Source: Parcubacteria group bacterium (GTDB lineage Bacteria; Patescibacteriota; Minisyncoccia; Moranbacterales; UBA2206). From it: 45,661 nucleotides of DNA. Position 1 is the first letter of the stretch, and each line of letters starts with the position of its first letter. Where the stretch lies: the NCBI GenBank assembly GCA_041662285.1, contig JBAZSS010000003.1:1-45661 (forward strand), read 5' to 3'. Shown one piece after another: positions 3,210 to 43,845 of this stretch. The notes below the pieces were generated by a model, which had not been told where the DNA came from, searched no databases, and saw nothing but the letters and a program-made list of their open reading frames with translations. Position numbers and translations under genes: made by a program.

Positions 3210-3293
3210 TATTGGGGACAGCCTGTGCATAACTTTTTTGGAAAGCGCCTAAAATGGGCGTTTTTTTGTTATTTTAAAAACAGAAAAAAAGTG

Positions 3294-3322
3294 TTGACCA
3301 ATGAAGTGTGGTGGGGTAAAAT
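3294..3322 (+). promoter_or_regulatory. Putative dcw/mraZ promoter, TTGACC-17 nt-TAAAAT
   Basis: The -35 TTGACC is at 3294-3299 and the -10 TAAAAT at 3317-3322, an exact 17-nt spacer. Confidence 0.6.
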
Positions 3323-3380: not shown

Positions 3381-3440
3381 ACGAATGAATGCGAATCTAC
3401 GAATAAGAATTTGCAAATTCGTAGATTCGAATGTATTCGT
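3381..3440. repeat. TACGAAT/ATTCGTA palindromic intergenic repeat, copy 1 (hairpin in the mraZ leader)
   Basis: Perfect 13-bp arms CGAATCTACGAAT (3392-3404) and ATTCGTAGATTCG (3417-3429). The stem extends imperfectly to 3381/3440. Confidence 0.8.
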
Positions 3441-3457
3441 AAATTCGCATCGCGTTT

Positions 3458-3892: not shown

Positions 3893-3904
3893 TCAAAAAA
3901 CAAG

Positions 3905-3957
3905 AGACAAGGAACAAGAAACAATAAAATAAGAATATTGTTCATTGGTCATTGCTC
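3905..3957. repeat. Heptamer arrays in the mraZ-rsmH spacer: (NNACAAK)x3 and (ATTGNTC)x3 in inverted orientation
   Basis: AGACAAG GAACAAG AAACAAT at 3905-3925, and ATTGTTC ATTGGTC ATTGCTC at 3937-3957. Confidence 0.75.
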
Positions 3958-3970
3958 GCTGAAAGTTGCT

Positions 3971-4987
3971 ATGTCTGTTCATAAATCTGTACTGCTTAGG
4001 GAGACTATTGAATCGCTTAATCTGAAATCAGAATCTATTGTGGTTGATGCGACATTTGGTGGTGGTGGTCATTCGAAAGAAATTTTGAAAATAATAGAGA
4101 ATGGAAAATTGATTGGGATTGATGCGGATGAAAAAGCCATTGAAGAATCGGATTTGAAAAATGATGAGAGAGTGATTTTAGTTAATGATAATTTTGAGAA
4201 TTTAGAAAATATTTTAGAGAGAATCGGAATTAGAAAAGTTGATGCTATTTTGGCGGATCTCGGTTGGTCGAGTGACCAGCTTGTCGGCAAAGGAATGAGT
4301 TTCCAAGAAGATGAACAGTTGGATATGCGACTTTCTGAAAATCAAGAAATTTCCGCTAAGACTGTTGTTAATGAATATGAACAAAGAGATTTAGAAAGAA
4401 TAATCAGAGAAAATGGCGAAGAAAAATTTTGGAAAATTATTGCTAAGAGAATTGTTGAATATAGAAAAGAGAAAAAAATAGAAACGACTCAAGAATTGGC
4501 AGGCATTGTGAAAAATGCCATTCCAGAAAAATTCAGACATAGTAAATTGAATTTAGCCACCAAAACTTTTCAGGCTCTGCGAATTGAAGTTAATCAGGAA
4601 CTTGCGAATTTAGAAAAGTTTATCCCGCAAGCGATTGAAAGATTGAATTTAGGAGGGAGACTTGCGATAATTTCGTTTCATTCATTAGAAGATAGGATAG
4701 TAAAAAATATATTACGGGAAAATGCTAGGGGATGCATTTGCCCGCCTGCCTTGCAATTACAAATATTGCAGGAGAAATATATAAAAGCTGTAGAAAATAA
4801 TAGTCCCGATGCTGAAATTTTAGAAAAGGCATTGCGGGCAGGCCCACCGGACTTTCCACAGTGTGCTTGCGGAAAGAAACCGAAAATTGCAATCATCACA
4901 AAAAAGCCAATTGCGCCAACTGATTTGGAAGTTAGCGATAATCCAAAATCAAGAAGCGCCAAGCTTCGGGTGTGTGAGAAAAAATAA
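3971..4987 (+). CDS. rsmH: 16S rRNA (cytosine1402-N4)-methyltransferase RsmH
   Basis: HKSVLLRETIESL, DATFGGGGHS, SFHSLEDRIVK and NPKSRSAKLRV motifs. I prefer the ATG at 3971. The track ORF starts at TTG 3938 and reads through the heptamer repeat. Confidence 0.9.
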   Translation: MSVHKSVLLRETIESLNLKSESIVVDATFGGGGHSKEILKIIENGKLIGIDADEKAIEESDLKNDERVILVNDNFENLENILERIGIRKVDAILADLGWSSDQLVGKGMSFQEDEQLDMRLSENQEISAKTVVNEYEQRDLERIIRENGEEKFWKIIAKRIVEYRKEKKIETTQELAGIVKNAIPEKFRHSKLNLATKTFQALRIEVNQELANLEKFIPQAIERLNLGGRLAIISFHSLEDRIVKNILRENARGCICPPALQLQILQEKYIKAVENNSPDAEILEKALRAGPPDFPQCACGKKPKIAIITKKPIAPTDLEVSDNPKSRSAKLRVCEKK

Positions 4988-5459: not shown

Positions 5460-7340
5460 ATGGCAAATATAGCTTCAAAAGATTTAAGAAACGGAAAAAC
5501 CAAATTAAAAAGATATTCCGATTCAAGAATCTATATATTATTTCTATTAATTTCTATTTTTGCTTTTTTGATAATTTTTCGGCTCTATAATTTGCAAATA
5601 CTTTCTCGTGATTATTATGAAGCTTTAGCGGAGGGACAGCATTCTATTTTTTCCAATTTGATTCCAGAGCGCGGAGAAATATTTTTGAAAGATAAGGATG
5701 GGGACTATCCTGTCGCGGTGAATAAGAGTACTAAGCTGGCTTTTGCTGTTCCGCGAGAAATGGATGATCCAAAAAATGTAGCGGAAGTTTTATCCCGAAC
5801 ATTAGGACTAGATGAAACAGAACTTCGAGAAAAGCTTGGGAAAGCAGATGACATGTATGAAGTTTTGAAACATCGCTTGAGTGATGAAGAAATAGCCAAT
5901 TTGAATAATTTAAAACTAGAAGGAGTGCATTTATCAGACGAAAGTTTCCGTTATTATCCCGGTGGGGAATTGTCTGCGCAAGTTTTAGGTTTTGTGGGTT
6001 GGAGAGGGGAAACCTTTGGTGGACGCTATGGCATTGAAAATTATTTTGACAAAGAGCTTATCGGTCAAGAAGGAAAACTTTTCCAAAATAAGGACAATGC
6101 TGGGCGTTGGATTCCGACTGGCAAAAAAGAATTGACGCGAGCACAAAATGGGGATGATTTAATTTTGACAATCGATCGCATCATTCAATATCAAACAGAA
6201 AAAATTCTCAAAAGTGCAGTGCAAAAATTTGAAGCTGATAGGGGCACGATTATCGTGATGGATCCGCCGACGGGAAAAATTCTTGCTCTTGCTAGCTATC
6301 CTTCTTTTGATCCAAATAATTATAAGGATGCCGAGTTAGAAAATTTCAGAAATATTGCAGTGAGTGATGCATATGAATCAGGTAGTGTTTTCAAAACTTT
6401 CACATTAGCTTCAGCTATTGATGACGGAAAAATTTCTCCAGAAACTACCTATATTGATACTGGCGCAGTCAAGGAAGCTGGCTATACTATGAGAAATTCT
6501 GATTTGAAAGCTTATGGCTTGCAAACGATGACGCAAGTTTTAGAAAATTCCCTAAATACCGGTGTGATATACGCGGAAAAACTTTTGGGCAATGCTAATT
6601 TTGCAGATTATATAAAAAGATTTGGTTTTGGAGAAACAACCGGCATTGAACTTCCGGGAGAAGGCGCCGGTAATATTGCTAATCTAAAAAATAAAAAATC
6701 AGATATAAATTTTTTCACCATATCATTTGGACAAGGGATAACAGTGACACCAATTCAGTTGGTTAGTGCTTATAATGCTATTGCCAACGGCGGAACACTG
6801 ATGAAACCCCAAATTGTGGACAAAATAATTTATAGTGATGGAAGCGTTGAGGAAATTGCACCTCAAGAAATTAGAAAGGTTATTTCCCAATCAACCGCTA
6901 ATCAGATTTCACAAATGCTCGAAAGTGTGGTGATTAAGGGGCATGGAAAAAGAGCTGGAGTTCCAGGATATAAAGTAGGCGGAAAAACCGGCACCGCTCA
7001 AGTAGCCAGTACAGAAAAGAAAGGTTATGAAGACGGAAAAAATATTGGATCATTCGCTGGGTTTGCTCCGATTGATAATCCCCAGTTTACTATTTTAGTT
7101 CGAATGGATAACCCAAAAACAGTAGAATGGGCAGAATCTAGTGCAGCGCCAACCTTTGGAGAATTGATGAAATTTTTGCTAGATTATAAAAACATCAAGC
7201 CGACAGAAGAATTTACTGACAAAGATCTTGATGTTTTCAAACAAACGCATACCTTGAATGAATTTTTTATAGATAATATGAAAGAAGAAAAAAGAAAGAA
7301 GGATGAAAAAGAAAAAAAAGATGAACAAGCAAAACCATAA
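5460..7340 (+). CDS. ftsI: Penicillin-binding protein / peptidoglycan D,D-transpeptidase (FtsI class)
   Basis: N-terminal TM anchor and the SVFK (SxxK), SLN (SxN) and KTGT motifs, in dcw context. Confidence 0.9.
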   Translation: MANIASKDLRNGKTKLKRYSDSRIYILFLLISIFAFLIIFRLYNLQILSRDYYEALAEGQHSIFSNLIPERGEIFLKDKDGDYPVAVNKSTKLAFAVPREMDDPKNVAEVLSRTLGLDETELREKLGKADDMYEVLKHRLSDEEIANLNNLKLEGVHLSDESFRYYPGGELSAQVLGFVGWRGETFGGRYGIENYFDKELIGQEGKLFQNKDNAGRWIPTGKKELTRAQNGDDLILTIDRIIQYQTEKILKSAVQKFEADRGTIIVMDPPTGKILALASYPSFDPNNYKDAELENFRNIAVSDAYESGSVFKTFTLASAIDDGKISPETTYIDTGAVKEAGYTMRNSDLKAYGLQTMTQVLENSLNTGVIYAEKLLGNANFADYIKRFGFGETTGIELPGEGAGNIANLKNKKSDINFFTISFGQGITVTPIQLVSAYNAIANGGTLMKPQIVDKIIYSDGSVEEIAPQEIRKVISQSTANQISQMLESVVIKGHGKRAGVPGYKVGGKTGTAQVASTEKKGYEDGKNIGSFAGFAPIDNPQFTILVRMDNPKTVEWAESSAAPTFGELMKFLLDYKNIKPTEEFTDKDLDVFKQTHTLNEFFIDNMKEEKRKKDEKEKKDEQAKP

Positions 7341-19464: not shown

Positions 19465-19725
19465 ATGTATTATCTATATATCCTGAGATGCGCTGACAAA
19501 ACTCTCTATACTGGAATCACCACTGATTTGAAACGGAGAATTTTGGAGCATAATGAAAAAAAACTTGGAGCAAGATATACTGCTTCGCGTCGGCCGGTAA
19601 AGTTGGTATATTCCAAGAAATTCAAAAGTCGATCCTTGGCTTCCAAGGAAGAAGCGAGGATTAAGAAATTAAAAAGAGTGCAAAAATTAGAATTAATTAA
19701 AAATTTAAAATATGCAAAACTATAA
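19465..19725 (+). CDS. GIY-YIG nuclease superfamily protein (UPF0213/YhbQ-like)
   Basis: MYYLYILRC..KTLYTGITTDLKRRILEHN. Length 86 aa. Confidence 0.85.
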   Translation: MYYLYILRCADKTLYTGITTDLKRRILEHNEKKLGARYTASRRPVKLVYSKKFKSRSLASKEEARIKKLKRVQKLELIKNLKYAKL

Positions 19726-20107
19726 TTGGTACTCACAATTAATTAAACCGACTTGGTCTCCGCCGGCTTGGCTTTTTGGTCCAGTCTGGACTTTTCTCTA
19801 CGCGCTAATTGCCATTTCTTTTGGCAAGGTTTTTTGGATGACACTCAAAAAACAAATTCCTTTCTTAGTAGCGTTGCCGTTTGTTCTAAATCTGATTTTC
19901 AACTTTTCTTTCACCCCCATTCAATTCGGATTAAAAAACAATCTCTTGGCAGCGGTGGATATTCTATTAGTACTAGGAACGCTTATTTGGGCGATGGTGG
20001 CAATCTATCCGCACTCAAAATGGATTACTTATATCCAAATCCCATATCTTCTTTGGGTGTCATTTGCAACTATTTTGCAACTCACAATTACGTATTTAAA
20101 TAAGTAA
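19712..20107 (+). CDS. TspO/MBR family tryptophan-rich sensory protein (short form)
   Basis: LIKPTWSPPAWLFGPVWTFLY motif and multiple TM segments. Confidence 0.75.
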   Translation: MQNYNWYSQLIKPTWSPPAWLFGPVWTFLYALIAISFGKVFWMTLKKQIPFLVALPFVLNLIFNFSFTPIQFGLKNNLLAAVDILLVLGTLIWAMVAIYPHSKWITYIQIPYLLWVSFATILQLTITYLNK

Positions 20108-20173
20108 TTTTTTGAAATATAAAAAATATTCAATGGTATTAATTTTGTGTAAATAATAAATAATAAAAAACAT

Positions 20174-20572
20174 ATGAAAGGATTCATGGGAAACATCGAG
20201 AAGGACACTCTCGAGAATGAAAACTTTAGAAAGGTTTTGTACACTGGCAAGCATAGTCAGTTGGTGCTGATGAGTTTGGCACCAAAGGAAGAAATTGGTA
20301 TGGAAGTTCATGAGGACAATGATCAATTTTTCCGTTTTGAAAAAGGTGAGGGAAAGGTGCTTATTGATGGTAATGAATATGCGGTAGGGGACGGCGTGGC
20401 GATTGTCGTGCCGGCAGGAGCCCAGCATAATGTGATTAATGTTTCCGAAACAGAGGAATTAAAGCTTTATACAATTTATTCTCCCGCGCATCATCAAGAC
20501 GGCATTGTTCGCCATACTAAAGCCGAAGCCGAAAGTAATGAGGCGGAATTTGACGGAAAAACGACGGAATAA
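20174..20572 (+). CDS. Cupin domain protein
   Basis: G.EVHEDNDQFF..EGEG...G....V..G..IVVPAGAQHNV matches the cupin_2 motifs. Confidence 0.8.
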   Translation: MKGFMGNIEKDTLENENFRKVLYTGKHSQLVLMSLAPKEEIGMEVHEDNDQFFRFEKGEGKVLIDGNEYAVGDGVAIVVPAGAQHNVINVSETEELKLYTIYSPAHHQDGIVRHTKAEAESNEAEFDGKTTE

Positions 20573-22915: not shown

Positions 22916-23010
22916 CGATGCGAATCTACGAATTCGATGCGAATCTACGAATAATCTTGAGGGATGATTCGCATGTCCGGCATTCGTAGCGCCGGTTCGC
23001 GAAGCGAATA
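22916..23010. repeat. TACGAAT-family intergenic repeat, copy 3 (19-bp tandem duplication plus inverted partners)
   Basis: CGATGCGAATCTACGAAT at 22916-22933 and again at 22935-22952. GATTCGCAT is at 22966-22974, ATTCGTAG at 22982-22989, and a CCGGC/GCCGG stem at 22977-22995. Confidence 0.8.
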
Positions 23011-27322: not shown

Positions 27323-27418
27323 ATGGCAGCAAAAAAGAAAGCAGCTAAAAAAGCTACAAAGAAAAAAGCTACAAAGAAAGTAGCAAAAAAGAAAGCAACA
27401 AAGAAGAAAAAGAAATAG
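27323..27418 (+). CDS. Unannotated 31-aa lysine/alanine-rich ORF (histone H1/Hc-like AKKA repeats)
   Basis: ATG at 27323 and TAG at 27416-27418. Translation MAAKKKAAKKATKKKATKKVAKKKATKKKKK. GGAAGGTGA lies 7 nt upstream and a strong terminator lies downstream. It is below the ORF-track length cutoff. Confidence 0.5.
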   Translation: MAAKKKAAKKATKKKATKKVAKKKATKKKKK

Positions 27419-27465
27419 TCTTTTTTGAATAATTGTTCTTTAATGCCTTAGGTATTATTGATAAA

Positions 27466-27495
27466 GCAAAAAATCGCGAAATCGCGATTTTTTGC
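27466..27495. terminator. Bidirectional terminator
   Basis: Perfect 13-bp stem GCAAAAAATCGCG (27466-27478) / CGCGATTTTTTGC (27483-27495), between the small ORF (+) and prmC (-). Confidence 0.85.
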
Positions 27496-27516
27496 TTTGA
27501 AAATAGGCCTAGTCGA

Positions 27517-28398
27517 TTATATCTCAAAGATAGCAACGCGCCATTTTTGGGCTAAATCTTTTCGAAATTCAATATGGGCATTAGGAAAATATTTTCTGAT
27601 TAATTTTGCAATTTTTTGTTTTTGTTCAGGACTTATTTCAAGAATCAACGAACAATGATCAATGATCAATGAGATATTTTTTATTTGTTTAAATAATTTT
27701 TCATAATGATCAAGTCCATCGATTCCGGAAAGTAGAGCGGACTTTGGTTCAAAGTTTTTTACATCAGGCATCGCTTCAGAATAAATTTTTTTCGAAAGAT
27801 AGGGGAGATTGGCAATTACAATGCAGTGATTAGTAATCAAGGAACAATGATCAATAAAATATTTTAGTAAATCAGATTTAATAAATTTGATTTTATTGTT
27901 AAGTTTATGAATTTTAGAATTTTTTTTGGCAATAGCCAATGCTTTTTCTGAAATATCAATTCCGAAGTATTTAATTTTATTACTGTTCATTGATTGTTGT
28001 TCATTGTTCTTTGCGATAGACATAATTATATTTCCACTACCGGTTCCAATATCGATAATTGTTTTATTTTGCGGATTCAATTTTAAAACATTTTCAACTA
28101 ATAGTTCTGTCTCTGGGCGGGGAATCAAAGTATGCTTATTTACCTTAAAATTAAGGCCGTAGAACTCTTTTTGACCGAGAATATAGGCAATTGGTTCATA
28201 GTTCAGTCTTCTTTTGATAAGATTAGTGAATTTCGCGACTTGCCTAGAGGTTAATTCTTTTTCCAGATGAATCATCACATATTCTCGAGGTTTTTTGAGA
28301 ATAAAGCCGAGCAAAAGCTCCGCATCAAGTTGCGGAGTTATAATCTTCTTTTCTTTTAGTTTTTCGATTGATTCAGCGAGAATCTGATTTATATTCAT
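27517..28398 (-). CDS. prmC: Release factor glutamine N5-methyltransferase PrmC/HemK
   Basis: IDIGTGSGNI (SAM motif I), ANLPY in place of NPPY, and a HemK N-terminal domain. It lies immediately downstream of prfA. Confidence 0.88.
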   Translation of the reverse strand: MNINQILAESIEKLKEKKIITPQLDAELLLGFILKKPREYVMIHLEKELTSRQVAKFTNLIKRRLNYEPIAYILGQKEFYGLNFKVNKHTLIPRPETELLVENVLKLNPQNKTIIDIGTGSGNIIMSIAKNNEQQSMNSNKIKYFGIDISEKALAIAKKNSKIHKLNNKIKFIKSDLLKYFIDHCSLITNHCIVIANLPYLSKKIYSEAMPDVKNFEPKSALLSGIDGLDHYEKLFKQIKNISLIIDHCSLILEISPEQKQKIAKLIRKYFPNAHIEFRKDLAQKWRVAIFEI

Positions 28399-28409
28399 CT
28401 CTTCTTAAT

Positions 28410-29477
28410 TTAAATTTTCCCCAATTTTCTTTTCGCATCTTCCTCTTGTAGGACAACCATCATTTCGTCTAAATTTCCTTCAAGGATAGATTTAATATTA
28501 CTCCAGCTTTGTTTTATGCGATGATCGGTGATGCGATCTTGTGGAAAATTGTAAGTGCGGATTTTTTCACTGCGGTCACCCGTACCAATTTGCGATTTTC
28601 GTGCGTCGCCAAGTTCTTTGGCTTTTCTTTCATCTTCCAACTGCAAGAGACGAGAGCGCAAAACTTTCATAGCCTTTTCTTTATTTTTGATTTGGGATTT
28701 TTCATCTTGGCAAGAAACTATAAGGTTAGTCGGAATGTGAGTGATGCGCACAGCGGATTTGGTAGTGTTGACGGATTGTCCTCCAGGGCCGGAAGAACAA
28801 AAAGTGTCAATTCTGATGTCTTTTTCTTCTATTTTTAAATCTACTTCTTCTGCTTCCGGCAAAACTGCCACAGTAGCGGTAGAAGTGTGTACTCGGCCAT
28901 TTTTTTCCGTTTCAGGAATTCTTTGCACGCGATGCACCCCAGATTCATATTTCATTTTTTCATAGACATTATTTCCATTAATTTCAAAGACAACTTCTTT
29001 ATACCCACCAATCCCGATGACATTGGAATTGAGAAGTACGGTGCTCCAACGATTTTTTTCCGCATATTTAGCATACATTTGAAAAAGATCTCCAGCAAAA
29101 AGAGCCGATTCATCTCCACCGGCGCCAGCCCGAATTTCCACGATAACATTTTTGTGGTCATTAGGATCCTTAGGAAGAAAAGTTTTTTCTAATTCTTTTT
29201 CCAAGAGGGCCTTTTTTGCGCTCAGGGTGACATTTTCTTCCATAGCCATTTGTTTCATTTCTGGATCTTCTTCAGCGGAATTGATAATCACAGCATTCTC
29301 TGCCATTGCTTTTTCCATTCTTTCCAATGCGTTTATATTCTCCATCGTTTCTGAGAGTTCAGCTTGTCTTTTGCCAAGTTCGCCCATCTTCTTGGCATCA
29401 CTAAAAATATCCGGGCTATTAAGCTCAGTGGAAATTTCCTCATATTCTTTCCTAATTTTCTCGATTTGTTCTTTCAT
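28410..29477 (-). CDS. prfA: Peptide chain release factor 1
   Basis: [11 protein letters not shown] (GGQ) and PET-containing tripeptide region (RIPETEK). Length 355 aa. Confidence 0.97.
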
Positions 29478-29481
29478 AACA

Positions 29482-29560
29482 CTACGAATTACCCGCCTCG
29501 ACTCGCAAGGTGATTGTTCGTCGACGCGAGGCGGGCGAATTTATACAAATTTACGAATAT
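29482..29560. repeat. TACGAAT-family repeat, copy 4 (directly upstream of prfA on the minus strand)
   Basis: CTACGAAT at 29482-29489, GCGAAT at 29535-29540 and TACGAAT at 29552-29558. They flank a 9-bp GC stem CCCGCCTCG (29492-29500) / CGAGGCGGG (29527-29535), which encloses GATTGTTCG. Confidence 0.75.
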
Positions 29561-34189: not shown

Positions 34190-34267
34190 TACGAACTACG
34201 AAATAACGAAATTACGAACAAGAAATTTTTCGTATTTCGTATTTCGTATTAGATTCGTATTTCGTAA
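34190..34267. repeat. TACGAAN / TTCGTAT heptamer arrays in inverted orientation, copy 6
   Basis: TACGAAC at 34190-34196, TACGAAA at 34197-34203 and TACGAAC at 34213-34219. TTCGTAT is in perfect tandem x3 at 34229-34249, with further units at 34254-34260 and 34261-34267. Confidence 0.85.
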
Positions 34268-34270
34268 AAT

Positions 34271-35392
34271 ATGAAAATTGCTATTCAAGCGGCAGATTTG
34301 GATTGGGCGCGAATTGATGGAACTAGGGTGTATATTCTAAATATGCTGAAATATTTCGGGCAACTTGATCCAAAAAGTCAATTTCTAATTTATCACAAGA
34401 AGAATTTTAATCCGGAGCTCACTCCGGCAAATTTTTCTAATTATAAAATTTGGAAAATTCCTTTTCCATTTTTTTGGACGCAAATTCGTCTGTGTCTCAG
34501 TCTTTTCTGGGAAAAACCAGATGTACTTTGGATGCCAATGCATAACATTCCACTCTTTCGCAACAAGAAAATGAAAACAGTGGTGACGATTCATGATTTA
34601 GCTTTCAAATATTTCCCGGATCATTTCAGGGCCGGTGATTTATTAAAACTCAATCTTTTGGTCGGCTGGGCAGTGCGAAGAAGTGACGGGATAATTGCCA
34701 TTTCCGAGGCGACGAAATATGATATCTTAAAATTTTATCCTAAGATAGAGGAAAATAAAATCAAGGTAATAAACCATGGCTTTGACAAGGAAGTTTTTGA
34801 CAAAGATCGAAATCCCGAAAAAGAACAGGAAATTAGAAATAAATTTAATATCCAAGGACGCTACATTTTTTATATCGGTGCTCTTCAACCCAGAAAAAAT
34901 CTAAAAACACTAATTAGCGCATTTGAAGAACTAAAAAAAGAAGAACAATATAAAGATGTGAAATTGGTTTTGGCTGGAGAAAAAGCTTGGCTATGGAAAG
35001 AAATTTTCTCGCAAATTGAAAATAGTCCGGCAAAACTGGAAATAATAACTCCTGGTAAAATAAAATTTGCCGATTTAGGGCATCTAATGCGCGGAGCGGA
35101 GATTTTTTGTTTTCCGTCACTCTATGAGGGATTTGGCATCCCAGTGCTTGAGGCCTTCAATTCTCGCGTCCCAGTGGTCTGTGCTAATAATTCTTCTCTT
35201 CCTGAAGTAGCGGGGGAGGCAGCACTGTATTTTGAACCAAAAGATCATTCACAATTGTCTTTGCAAATTAAAAAAATTCTGGATAACCCAGAACTTAGGA
35301 AAGATTTTATTTCCAAAGGCCTTGCGCAAGCTAATAAATTTTCTTGGGAAAAATGTGCACAGGAAACACTGGAATATTTGAAAAATTCATGA
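34271..35392 (+). CDS. Glycosyltransferase, GT-B fold (Glycos_transf_1 / GT4 family)
   Basis: C-terminal EGFGIPVLEA motif and the typical two-domain length. Confidence 0.85.
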   Translation: MKIAIQAADLDWARIDGTRVYILNMLKYFGQLDPKSQFLIYHKKNFNPELTPANFSNYKIWKIPFPFFWTQIRLCLSLFWEKPDVLWMPMHNIPLFRNKKMKTVVTIHDLAFKYFPDHFRAGDLLKLNLLVGWAVRRSDGIIAISEATKYDILKFYPKIEENKIKVINHGFDKEVFDKDRNPEKEQEIRNKFNIQGRYIFYIGALQPRKNLKTLISAFEELKKEEQYKDVKLVLAGEKAWLWKEIFSQIENSPAKLEIITPGKIKFADLGHLMRGAEIFCFPSLYEGFGIPVLEAFNSRVPVVCANNSSLPEVAGEAALYFEPKDHSQLSLQIKKILDNPELRKDFISKGLAQANKFSWEKCAQETLEYLKNS

Positions 35393-35534
35393 CTTACGCA
35401 TTTCTCTTCAAATCTATTGTTCGCTGAAATTATAAAAAAACAAACTAAGATTATAGATATAAGTAGTTTATTATAATCCTGCCATTGTCATGGCTACATA
35501 AATAGATTTTCAGGTAAACGCGTAAGTCCTAAAG

Positions 35535-42633: not shown

Positions 42634-43824
42634 ATGAAATCTTTTTTGATAAAATTGAATAAAGCTCGCCGGATGATTCAGAAAAGTGGATTTAGAATTG
42701 GCGGAAAAATAGTTTTGGGATATGTCAAAGATTATGCCAAATCTTTTTTCGTGAATTCAGGAGAAATCTTATTCATCACAGGAGGAATAGGCGACAAAGC
42801 TCATTTTCGAGCTTTTGGCGTAGCGGAAGAATTAATGATCCATGATTTCAAATGTGCCGTGACCGTGGCGGATAATTTTAATTTGCCAAAAATTGCCAAG
42901 AAGTTTAAGATTTTTGTTTTGCATAAAGTGGCTTATAACGAAAAAATAGCTAAATTAATTTCCGAGATAAAAAAACAAAACAAAGAAATTATTTTTGACA
43001 CGGATGATTTGGATTACGATCCGCAATATTTGAAATATATGGACTATTTTTCACTTATTTCGGACTCGGAAAAAAAAGAATATGAAAAAGGAATTGGCGC
43101 AGAAATTATAAATGACGAATATGTTAAGGTATGCACCACTACTGTTTCATATTTAGCGCAGAAAATTAGAGAAAAGAATAAAAAAGTTTTTATAGTGCCG
43201 AATAAAATTTCCAATAATGAATTGGAAATTGCTGATAAAATATTATCAGAAAGAAAAAAACAGGATGGATTTTTGCGGATAGGATATTTTTCTGGAACTT
43301 ATTCGCATAATAGGGATTTTGCCACAATAAATGATGCGCTTTTAGAAATTTTAGAAAAAAATAAAAATGTCAAATTGCTTTTAGCAGGACCGCTAGATAT
43401 CGAAAATAAACTTAATAGATTCAAAGATCGCATTGAAATTTTGCCGAGAGTGCCACGAGAAGAATATTACAATAATATTTTTAAATGTGATATTAACATA
43501 GTGCCTTTAGAAATTGGTAATCCTTTTTGTGAATCAAGATCGGAACTCAAATTTTTTGAAGCGGGAATTCTTGAAATTCCGACTGTGGCGGTGAGAAATC
43601 AAACTTTTAGCGAAGCAATTTCTGATGGCGTGGATGGATTTTTAGCGGATAAAACTTCCGAGTGGGTGGAAAAAATAAGCCGACTGGTTGAAGATGAAAA
43701 ATTAAGACAAGATATGGGAAAGAAAGCGCGAAAAAAAGTCTTACTTGATTATACTAATAAAAACAGTCATAACGAAGAATATTATAATTATTTAAAATCA
43801 TGTATCATGAAACATGAAGCATGA
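42634..43824 (+). CDS. Glycosyltransferase, GT-B fold (group 1-like)
   Basis: C-terminal half with the ...E.SR.ELKFFEAG.LEIPTVA pattern. The last 7 codons run into the heptamer array. Confidence 0.7.
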   Translation: MKSFLIKLNKARRMIQKSGFRIGGKIVLGYVKDYAKSFFVNSGEILFITGGIGDKAHFRAFGVAEELMIHDFKCAVTVADNFNLPKIAKKFKIFVLHKVAYNEKIAKLISEIKKQNKEIIFDTDDLDYDPQYLKYMDYFSLISDSEKKEYEKGIGAEIINDEYVKVCTTTVSYLAQKIREKNKKVFIVPNKISNNELEIADKILSERKKQDGFLRIGYFSGTYSHNRDFATINDALLEILEKNKNVKLLLAGPLDIENKLNRFKDRIEILPRVPREEYYNNIFKCDINIVPLEIGNPFCESRSELKFFEAGILEIPTVAVRNQTFSEAISDGVDGFLADKTSEWVEKISRLVEDEKLRQDMGKKARKKVLLDYTNKNSHNEEYYNYLKSCIMKHEA

Positions 43825-43845
43825 AACATGAAACAATAAAACATA
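43797..43845. repeat. Tandem heptamer array (NNCATGA)x5 plus 2 degenerate units, spanning a stop/start junction
   Basis: ATCATGT ATCATGA AACATGA AGCATGA AACATGA AACAATA AAACATA. The TGA stop of the glycosyltransferase is at 43822-43824 and the next ATG at 43845. Confidence 0.85.

Follow-up and report, generated by a model that had tools for sequence, protein, structure and literature searches.

In-frame heptanucleotide arrays in the loops of the release-factor methyltransferase PrmC of a Moranbacteria-like patescibacterium

Introduction

Why should a conserved housekeeping enzyme carry, within its reading frame, several near-identical copies of a short DNA repeat? The question is raised by prmC, the gene of the release-factor N5-glutamine methyltransferase, on a stretch of 45,661 nucleotides (referred to below as the window) from a Moranbacteria-like patescibacterium (GenBank assembly GCA_041662285.1, contig JBAZSS010000003.1). 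A previous interpretation made from the letters alone (the sequence-only reading) had noticed three repeat copies within this gene and had proposed that they were related to intergenic repeats elsewhere in the window. Based on the repeat statistics, structural alignments and comparisons with relatives presented here, we propose that the prmC repeats are probably heptanucleotide arrays of a dispersed class similar to the STRR (short tandemly repeated repetitive) elements of cyanobacteria, and that they are tolerated in frame in permissive loops of PrmC. The 7-nt periodicity, the presence of differing arrays in the homologous loops of relatives and the concentration of arrays in prmC all go beyond what had been noticed before.

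Results

Three period-7 arrays within prmC

The gene and its three arrays (sites A, B and C) are as follows:

27517-28398, minus strand: prmC (release-factor N5-glutamine methyltransferase), 293 aa, defined by its open reading frame (ORF), Pfam, HemK structures, homologues and an AlphaFold model
27643-27672, minus strand: site B array, TCATTGA TCATTGA TCATTGT TCGTTGA TT, encoding S-L-I-I-D-H-C-S-L-I (residues 243-252)
27821-27855, minus strand: site A array, ATTGATC ATTGTTC CTTGATT ACTAATC ACTGCAT, encoding I-D-H-C-S-L-I-T-N-H-C (residues 182-192); direct repeat family D1
27984-28013, plus strand: site C array, TTCATTG ATTGTTG TTCATTG TTC, where the gene reads N-N-E-Q-Q-S-M-N-S (residues 131-139)

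As the sequence-only reading had stated, two near-identical 21-mers, ATTGATCATTGTTCGTTGATT in site B (27643-27663, minus strand) and ATTGATCATTGTTCCTTGATT in site A (27835-27855, minus strand), share 20/21 positions and are both translated in frame as I-D-H-C-S-L-I (residues 246-252 and 182-188, respectively). They are the only matches to the 21-mer with at most 3 mismatches in the window, where shuffled sequences lead one to expect 0.01 (at least two matches in 0/100 shuffles). The third copy in opposite orientation, also claimed at the outset, is equally real: its arm 27987-28013 is 85% complementary to 27646-27672 over 27 nt, and 27994-28013 is complementary to 27838-27857 of site A over 20 nt, again at 85% (inverted repeats I1 and I5). 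All three repeats consist of a 7-nt unit, ATTGATC/ATTGTTC, repeated in tandem, two of them in sense (A and B) and one in antisense orientation (C). Tandem Repeats Finder (TRF) describes site B as 4.1 copies of ATCAATG at 27644-27672 with 86% matches (lag-7 score 13-14, against 0.05 expected arrays) and site C as 4.3 copies of the period-7 unit TGTTCAT at 27984-28013; on the coding strand the latter reads GAACAAT GAACAAC AATCAAT GAACAGT, the reverse complement of the site A/B unit. Each insert is a stretch of 21-35 nt made up of tandem 7-mers. None has terminal inverted repeats or more than 2 perfect units, and the 9-mer TCATTGTTC is confined within the window to prmC.

The host gene is firmly identified. 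PrmC_N (PF17827) matches residues 5-75 (E = 5.9e-21), methyltransferase domains are also matched in Pfam, and solved HemK structures match the ORF at 4e-28. A search with the product returned 8000 homologues, the nearest being PrmC proteins from metagenome-assembled genomes of Moranbacteria, Parcubacteria and Patescibacteria. The S-adenosylmethionine (SAM)-binding motif GTGSG (residues 118-122) and the catalytic motif NLPY (residues 197-200) both align to the HemK structures 1NV8 and 2B3T, and N197, L198, P199 and Y200 are invariant across 27 PrmC orthologues. Together with the adjoining prfA gene, these domains and motifs identify ORF 27517-28398 as PrmC/HemK.

An assembly artefact was considered and ruled out. 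Over 27400-28500 the window is identical to contigs of two independent groundwater metagenome runs (2018 and 2022), which provides assembly support, and the closest relative (L105) retains all three arrays.

Period 7 in the window and in relatives

By a lag-match score, lag 7 yields 3 strong arrays in the window, where 0.05 would be expected; the other lags from 4 to 13 yield none, and lags 14 (2x7) and 15 yield one each. The same holds on a larger scale: in 259 kb of loci from the candidate phyla radiation (CPR), the lag-7 count is 21 arrays and the lag-14 count 17, with nothing at lags 4-6, 8 or 10. In 412 kb of non-CPR loci there are 0 arrays at lag 7. In 19 prmC genes there are 33 period-7 arrays, as against 1-5 for each of the periods 5, 6, 8, 9 and 10. 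Period 7 is thus the sole enriched short period in the window and its relatives. Outside prmC, three arrays stand out in the window:

3894-3964, plus strand: opposed intergenic arrays, (CAAGRAA)n followed by ATTGTTC ATTGGTC ATTGCTC (TRF and pattern search; hairpin fold with z = -2.1)
34190-34268, plus strand: opposed arrays (TACGAAA)n / (TTTCGTA)n forming an intergenic hairpin (TRF period 7, 6 copies; lag-7 score 16)
43797-43844, plus strand: (CATGAAA)n array (TRF period 7, 5.4 copies, score 55)

The first pair lies just upstream of the start of an rsmH-like gene at 3971, and its second arm (3937-3964) belongs to the prmC unit family: the two-unit pattern ATTGNTCATTGNTC has 7 matches in the window with at most 1 mismatch, against 0.63 expected. 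The earlier suggestion that the prmC repeats have intergenic relatives therefore stands for 3937-3964. It fails for 29512-29520 and 35416-35429, which are chance-level occurrences of the 8-mer ATTGTTCG (5 in the window against 2.28 expected; 8/100 shuffles reach 5). The short words CATTGTT, ATTGTTC and CATTGAT are not enriched in the window, and a dispersed motif of 7-8 nt resembling DNA-uptake sequences was rejected accordingly. The hairpin at 34190-34268 shows how period-7 arrays usually occur in this genome; it folds at -24.6 kcal/mol (z = -4.4; 0/200 shuffles as good) and lies directly upstream of an ORF starting at 34271. The array at 43797-43844 runs from the final codons of ORF 42634-43824 across the spacer that precedes an epimerase gene (start 43845), and its unit is the reverse complement of the CATGTTT family seen in the prmC genes of relatives.

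Location of the arrays in the protein fold

That the three segments might be lineage-specific insertions in surface loops had been put forward as a point to check, and it is borne out by alignment and by modelling. Relative to Thermotoga maritima HemK (1NV8/1SG9), the gaps in the alignment match the positions of the three segments exactly, with 7+1 aa at site C and 3 and 5 aa at the others. In the repeat-free patescibacterial relatives L007, L092 and L025 the loops at sites C and A are 5-7 aa shorter, site A of the window being about 5-6 aa longer than in L007 and L092. In an AlphaFold model built on 27 orthologues (pLDDT, the predicted local distance difference test score, of 90.2), site C forms a disordered loop linking helix 123-135 to strand 143-148 (pLDDT <50 at residues 137-139); site A takes in the last part of helix 179-183 together with the turn that precedes strand 191-196, the strand running into NLPY; and site B comprises loop 243-247 after helix 230-242, plus the first half of strand 248-254. 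Sites A and B are thus in unlike structural contexts, and the heptapeptide IDHCSLI adopts differing local structures. Given how class-I methyltransferases are known to fold, we infer that the N-terminal edge of the parallel sheet bears all three loops, on the side away from SAM and substrate. These data support the view that the prmC arrays derive from repeats, are specific to the lineage and occupy surface loops of a housekeeping enzyme.

Other units at the same loops in relatives

Relatives were compared through a protein alignment of 27 orthologues and the DNA of about 25 orthologous prmC genes. The orthologue loops homologous to sites A, B and C hold period-7 arrays of quite different units. 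Arrays are also found in relatives in a fourth loop, which immediately precedes the GTGSG strand and is present in the window in its short form. Examples are:

TACTCAC, 4.7 perfect copies, reading YSLLTTH: site A of L002
GGAAATT, 4.7 perfect copies, reading GNWKLEI: site B of L112
CATGTTT, 4 copies, reading CFMFHVS: site B of L088
GATACAA, reading DTRYKIQ: several sites

Further units in the prmC genes of relatives are AAAACTA, AGTTACT, AATTAGT and CACTGTY; L003 prmC has a period-14 unit, and AACCTGT is found in the Daviesbacteria gene L039. In some orthologues small palindromic hairpins occupy these loops instead of arrays, namely in L089 (VIPAQAGIQ and GTAGGGGCAATTCATGAATTGCCCCTAC), in P0008 (LCHSRENGNP..SRFHGNDK) and in L111. 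Site B of the L111 gene (10765-10816) contains a 21-nt GC-rich hairpin, CCTGCCTGCCGAAGAGGCAGG (CCTGCC..GGCAGG), in frame inside a CATGYTT array and translated as CLPKRQV. The same hairpin family recurs in L095 (about 3255-3295) as a terminator-like element just after prmC, and it appears as LPRRQAG/PPAGEAG peptides in other orthologues.

The closest relative, L105 (GCA_030654225.1; 83% amino-acid identity), has all three arrays with few substitutions. When the window gene is aligned with L105 10001-10894 (alignment A2), blocks of 97-100% identity are broken by two nearly unalignable blocks of 60-80 nt (columns 134-200 and 296-380). Such a mosaic of identical and very-low-identity blocks points to sub-genic recombination between diverged prmC alleles, a process that helps to explain the patchwork of units among orthologues. 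Sites A and B differ at 1/21 positions in the window and at 1-5 in the orthologous copies, and site A of the window has 1 difference from site A of the distant L108. The L095 gene (2396-3237) has N's and a reading-frame change inside a period-14 array (GTGGAACACGAAAT), which is probably an assembly problem. In a profile search of contigs with the prmC alignment, L001-L003 were the only close ones among the matches listed, the rest being mostly distant PrmC genes.

Reading frame and codons

In-gene tandem repeats normally have periods in multiples of three. Since 7 mod 3 = 1, a heptamer array under translation visits each of the three frames in turn, and the same cyclic heptapeptide results from any starting frame: (IDHCSLI)n is all that the sense orientation can give, and the NNEQ..SMN type all that the antisense orientation can give. 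The idea that the repeat is tolerated only in the frame that reads HCSL is therefore moot. A perfect (ATTGATC)3 would read ATT GAT CAT TGA; sites A and B have TGT in place of this TGA, and site C has CAA CAA where a perfect array would give CAA TGA. The unit imperfections TGA>TGT (A and B) and TGA>CAA (C) are precisely those needed to clear in-frame stops. Among in-gene arrays there is no enrichment of units that lack stops in every frame (24/47, against a random expectation of 51%); the long perfect in-gene arrays (at least 30 nt) are all built of stop-free units.

Given the codon usage of this genome and an equal peptide, the probability of at least 6/7 identical codons is about 0.02, which makes a shared DNA origin of sites A and B likelier than convergence at the protein level. 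The site A peptide YFIDHCSLIT is kept across many orthologues, mostly through synonymous changes (alignment A3), which suggests that the site A array is old and is now ordinary protein sequence.

prmC as a hot spot, and the dispersal of arrays

The density of arrays scoring at least 10 was counted across five syntenic loci, each spanning about 20 kb and with its genes called:

prmC: 11 arrays in 4.6 kb, 2.39 per kb
Other coding DNA: 2 arrays in 89.5 kb, 0.022 per kb
Intergenic DNA: 8 arrays in 9.7 kb, 0.83 per kb

The density in prmC is about 100 times that in other coding DNA, with the proviso that orthologous sites are not independent events. Three or four prmC loops carry arrays, and about 20 neighbouring genes carry essentially none. 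Elsewhere, the C-terminal tail of the L112 epimerase contains an in-frame antisense form (NSVNSEQGIMNN) of the window's unit family, and a few other genes in less related CPR loci hold in-frame arrays; the phenomenon thus appears to be general but rare in coding DNA. The recurrence of unit families across loops and lineages points to a limited shared repertoire rather than to free drift in situ.

The arrays of L002 prmC (1060-1093 and 1474-1507) have a word depth 100-1000 times that of their flanks in four groundwater metagenomes, and metagenome contigs end at these arrays with many differing continuations. Both features indicate that the arrays are highly dispersed in the community and that they fragment assemblies. 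Searches of viral contigs found arrays to be rare (5 matches and 1 match). The sole viral match to the window's unit is an intergenic opposed-array hairpin at 7160-7250 of an unrelated, GC-rich phage-like contig (L118, IMGVR_UViG_3300015608_001411), in whose spacer ATTGATC ATTGTTC ATTGATC stands opposite TGAACAATGAAAC, with a TTTTCAA array in addition. A protein search for host families with six concatenated heptad peptides yielded nothing but short low-complexity ORFs from a wide range of organisms. The syntenic relative L108 encodes, at 19641-20309, a 222-aa protein with a faint Pfam match to Y1_Tnp (IS200/RAYT type, RAYT standing for REP-associated tyrosine transposase). A link of the arrays to a RAYT-type enzyme was rejected, as tblastn of this gene against the window found no homologue.

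Neighbouring genes and other elements of the window

Two features flank prmC:

28410-29477, minus strand: prfA, encoding release factor 1 (RF1); an ORF 11 nt upstream of prmC
27456-27505, no strand assigned: perfect hairpin terminator 3' of prmC (inverted repeat I2; fold -25.3 kcal/mol, z = -5.8)

RF1 is a substrate of PrmC. The prfA-prmC order is kept in L105, L107, L108, L111 and L112, where the syntenic genes have PCRF and RF-1 domains, and the two genes probably share an operon. The hairpin at 27456-27505 has a perfect 16-bp stem (AAAGCAAAAAATCGCGA/TCGCGATTTTTTGCTTT) between prmC and a convergent small ORF (27323-27418), and looks like a bidirectional intrinsic terminator common to both. 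This ORF (plus strand, 31 aa) is preceded by a ribosome-binding site (GGAAGGTGA), is built from tandem repeats of 12-27 nt (TRF) and encodes a Lys/Ala-rich product (MAAKKKAAKKATKKKATKKVAKKKATKKKKK) that may be a small basic, histone-tail-like protein. In the prfA leader (29487-29545, minus strand), a GC-rich hairpin, CCCGCCTCG...CGAGGCGGG (-27.3 kcal/mol, z = -3.0), immediately precedes the prfA start. ATTCGTA-type words flank it, and its loop contains the copy of the 8-mer ATTGTTCG that the sequence-only reading had cited. Elsewhere in the window, a perfect 19-nt direct repeat (CGATGCGAATCTACGAATT, two copies at 22916-22952) lies upstream of ORF 23015, and a period-8 array of ATTCGTAG is present at 3417-3447. 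Words containing TTCGTA recur in several upstream regions and may form a regulatory or promoter-proximal motif family.

Discussion

Origin of the prmC arrays

The explanation that we favour, dispersed heptanucleotide arrays tolerated in permissive loops, runs as follows. The arrays belong to a genome-wide period-7 class that is normally intergenic in this bacterium, often as opposed arrays folding into hairpins, and that in prmC occupies three loops (helix A to strand 2; before the NLPY strand; before strand 5). Translation passes straight through them, and because 7 is not a multiple of 3 all frames are cycled, giving a peptide with a period of 7 residues. Selection would have had to impose only a total length in multiples of 3 and the mutation of units giving TGA. 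The 20/21 identity of sites A and B would then result from one unit being read in one phase, with a possible further contribution of local gene conversion or template switching. The arrays themselves may have arisen by slippage or template switching (or another copying mechanism), their insertion would have been nearly neutral, and the site A peptide would have been fixed later.

Several points weigh against this explanation. Loop tolerance alone fails to account for the excess of about 100-fold in prmC, and the true number of prmC insertions may be only 3-4, the orthologous sites being non-independent. A few unit families recur in many lineages and loci, for which simple slippage and drift in situ are insufficient, and the searches described above linked no enzyme or mobile element to the period-7 arrays. 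The site A array appears to be old and under selection at the protein level, and so not to be evolving freely; moreover, the evidence on copy number comes from assembled contigs. There is also a bolder proposal: Patescibacteria of this group would have an active, sequence-templated process (a tiny mobile element or a dedicated copying enzyme) that seeds and exchanges heptanucleotide arrays from a limited repertoire of units, with prmC as a preferred target or a selected host. The arrays would act as slippage or recombination switches, or as DNA or RNA structures tuning release-factor methylation and hence stop-codon read-through. We regard this proposal as unlikely.

One rival explanation is a one-off local event, in which 21 nt of site A were duplicated or converted into site B and copied in inverted form into site C, unrelated to any genome-wide class of repeats. 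The near-identity of A and B (1/21 differences here, 1-5 in orthologous copies), the presence of three copies within 370 nt and the confinement of the 9-mer to prmC speak for it. It is nevertheless a distinctly unlikely account, given that each copy is internally periodic with period 7, that the homologous loops of relatives carry arrays of unrelated units and that the unit family is also found at 3937-3964 and in the L112 epimerase tail; furthermore, the single difference from site A of the distant L108 means that the A/B identity is not clearly recent. With a genome-wide class of arrays already largely established here, such an event survives only as a contributing step of local conversion within the explanation favoured here. 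We give even less credence to convergence or chance, in which two loops would each need IDHCSLI and a biased codon usage would make the DNA alike; this explanation is very nearly negligible. An AT-rich codon bias does make identical codons fairly likely and the site A peptide is conserved in many orthologues, but 0.01 matches are expected by chance, the codon identity has the low probability given above, and the heptapeptide occurs in contexts as unlike as a helix end plus turn (A) and a loop plus beta-strand (B). Moreover, the antisense copy encodes an unrelated peptide, and identical arrays are present in non-coding DNA.

Two further explanations assign a function to the arrays. The opposed arrays (C versus A/B) could form a selected stem in the prfA-prmC mRNA or in single-stranded DNA, modulating for instance translation, stability or pausing, as had been raised in the sequence-only reading in the form of pairing within the mRNA. 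The complementarity is real (C/B and C/A, see above), and pairing is predicted: in the minimum free energy (MFE) structure computed for 27620-28030 (overall z = -2.7), GAACAAUGA of site C is base-paired to UCAUUGUUC of site A, and site B makes a local stem with the upstream GIDGLDHY-coding region. Anecdotal matched changes are seen in relatives (CAATG/CATTG to CAGTG/CACTG in L106; GAGCA/TGCTC together in L107), and intergenic arrays of this genome do fold into hairpins. Selection for the pairing, however, is not borne out: two C/A registers in seven orthologues (alignment A3) show no excess of covariation (138-336/500 shuffles reach the observed values), pairing is broken in L108 and L109, C, A and B hold unrelated units in the majority of orthologues, and no Rfam match is found in the window at the gathering threshold. 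Opposed arrays of one unit pair by construction, and template-switch conversion between inverted repeats equally predicts matched changes. A selected stem is thus improbable in our view, and slightly more so is the second functional explanation, in which the arrays are contingency loci: gain or loss of 7 nt by slipped-strand mispairing would shift the frame and toggle PrmC, producing heritable variation in release-factor methylation and read-through. In favour of such loci are a unit length indivisible by 3, the tracts of 4-4.7 perfect units within prmC of L002, L112 and L088, the far greater frequency of arrays in prmC than in other coding DNA, and the frame change inside the L095 array. The window arrays are nonetheless so degenerate (at most 2 perfect units) that slippage would be rare; the ORF is intact in 27/27 aligned orthologues, 22 contigs from numerous samples encode exactly the P0012 protein, the contigs of two runs are identical to the window, and no 7-nt indels were seen in the assembled contigs examined. 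The L095 case involves N's and is, as noted, probably an assembly problem.

Significance

The prevailing period is 7 nt in intergenic DNA as well as in the loops of a conserved translation enzyme, here in an uncultivated phylum. Period-7 arrays explain the odd heptad-like peptides, rich in Cys, His, Trp or Met, of the PrmC proteins examined (HCSLIID, CFMFHVS, GNWKLEI, KSYKLKA, DTRYKIQ), and such peptides also occur, at lower density, in a few other CPR genes. If the arrays are indeed of the STRR-like class, the STRR phenomenon would extend to a second, very distant lineage, and the read-out offered by a coding sequence (frame, stop avoidance and loop tolerance) could be used for studying the origin and turnover of such arrays. 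The concentration of arrays in prmC, about 100-fold, is a concrete puzzle, and a caution applies to metagenomics, as period-7 arrays break assemblies.

Comparison with known repeat systems

A literature search found no paper on heptamer arrays in CPR/Patescibacteria, and the closest parallels come from other bacteria. Heptanucleotide simple sequence repeats (SSRs) are reportedly among those catalogued in Haemophilus influenzae (PMC2651432). The prmC arrays resemble the contingency loci of phase-variable genes in Haemophilus and Neisseria in being in-frame tandem repeats whose unit is not a multiple of three. Contingency loci, however, are long perfect tracts in surface or restriction-modification genes, whereas the prmC tracts are short and degenerate, the orthologue ORFs are intact and the host gene encodes a translation-factor methyltransferase.

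Rickettsia palindromic elements (RPEs), like other intragenic MITEs, are repeat DNA inserted in frame in unrelated housekeeping genes at fold-compatible positions, and translated (PMC10969869). The PrmC inserts are likewise in frame and compatible with the fold, and the prmC genes of P0008, L089 and L111 hold small palindromic elements in these very loops. Unlike RPEs, which are about 150 bp long with conserved sequence and palindromic ends, the PrmC inserts are 7-mer arrays of 21-35 nt without a defined element boundary. The small dispersed repeats (SDRs) of Nostoc, attributed to Elhai et al. in 2008, are reportedly very small mobile repeats of 21-27 nt, hairpin-forming and dispersed, and are said to be often nested in heptameric tandem repeats. 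The 21-nt hairpin within the CATGYTT array of L111 prmC is reminiscent of this nesting; the window's prmC, by contrast, has arrays only and no such hairpin.

The STRR sequences of cyanobacteria remain the nearest analogue. They are 7-bp tandem repeats in several dispersed families, mostly intergenic and hairpin-forming, with unknown function (PMC2670836). Arrays of the prmC class are similarly composed of head-to-tail 7-nt units in several families, present at many loci, mainly intergenic and hairpin-forming. The published STRR units CCCCAAT, TTGGTCA and CAACAGT resemble some of the units seen here: ATTGGTC (3944-3950) is a rotation of TTGGTCA, and ACTGTTC and ATTGGGA are one base off the reverse complements of CAACAGT and CCCCAAT, respectively. 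STRR heptanucleotide repeats have reportedly been found inside the RNase P RNA gene (rnpB) of heterocyst-forming cyanobacteria, at a variable element, in a 1997 paper by Vioque. As STRR sequences are defined in heterocyst-forming cyanobacteria and the host here is a patescibacterium, the prmC class is an analogue in another phylum and not a strict member. It differs further in that its arrays are translated in frame in three or four loops of a protein-coding housekeeping gene, that its unit families differ between lineages at one and the same loop, and that one gene is a strong hot spot.

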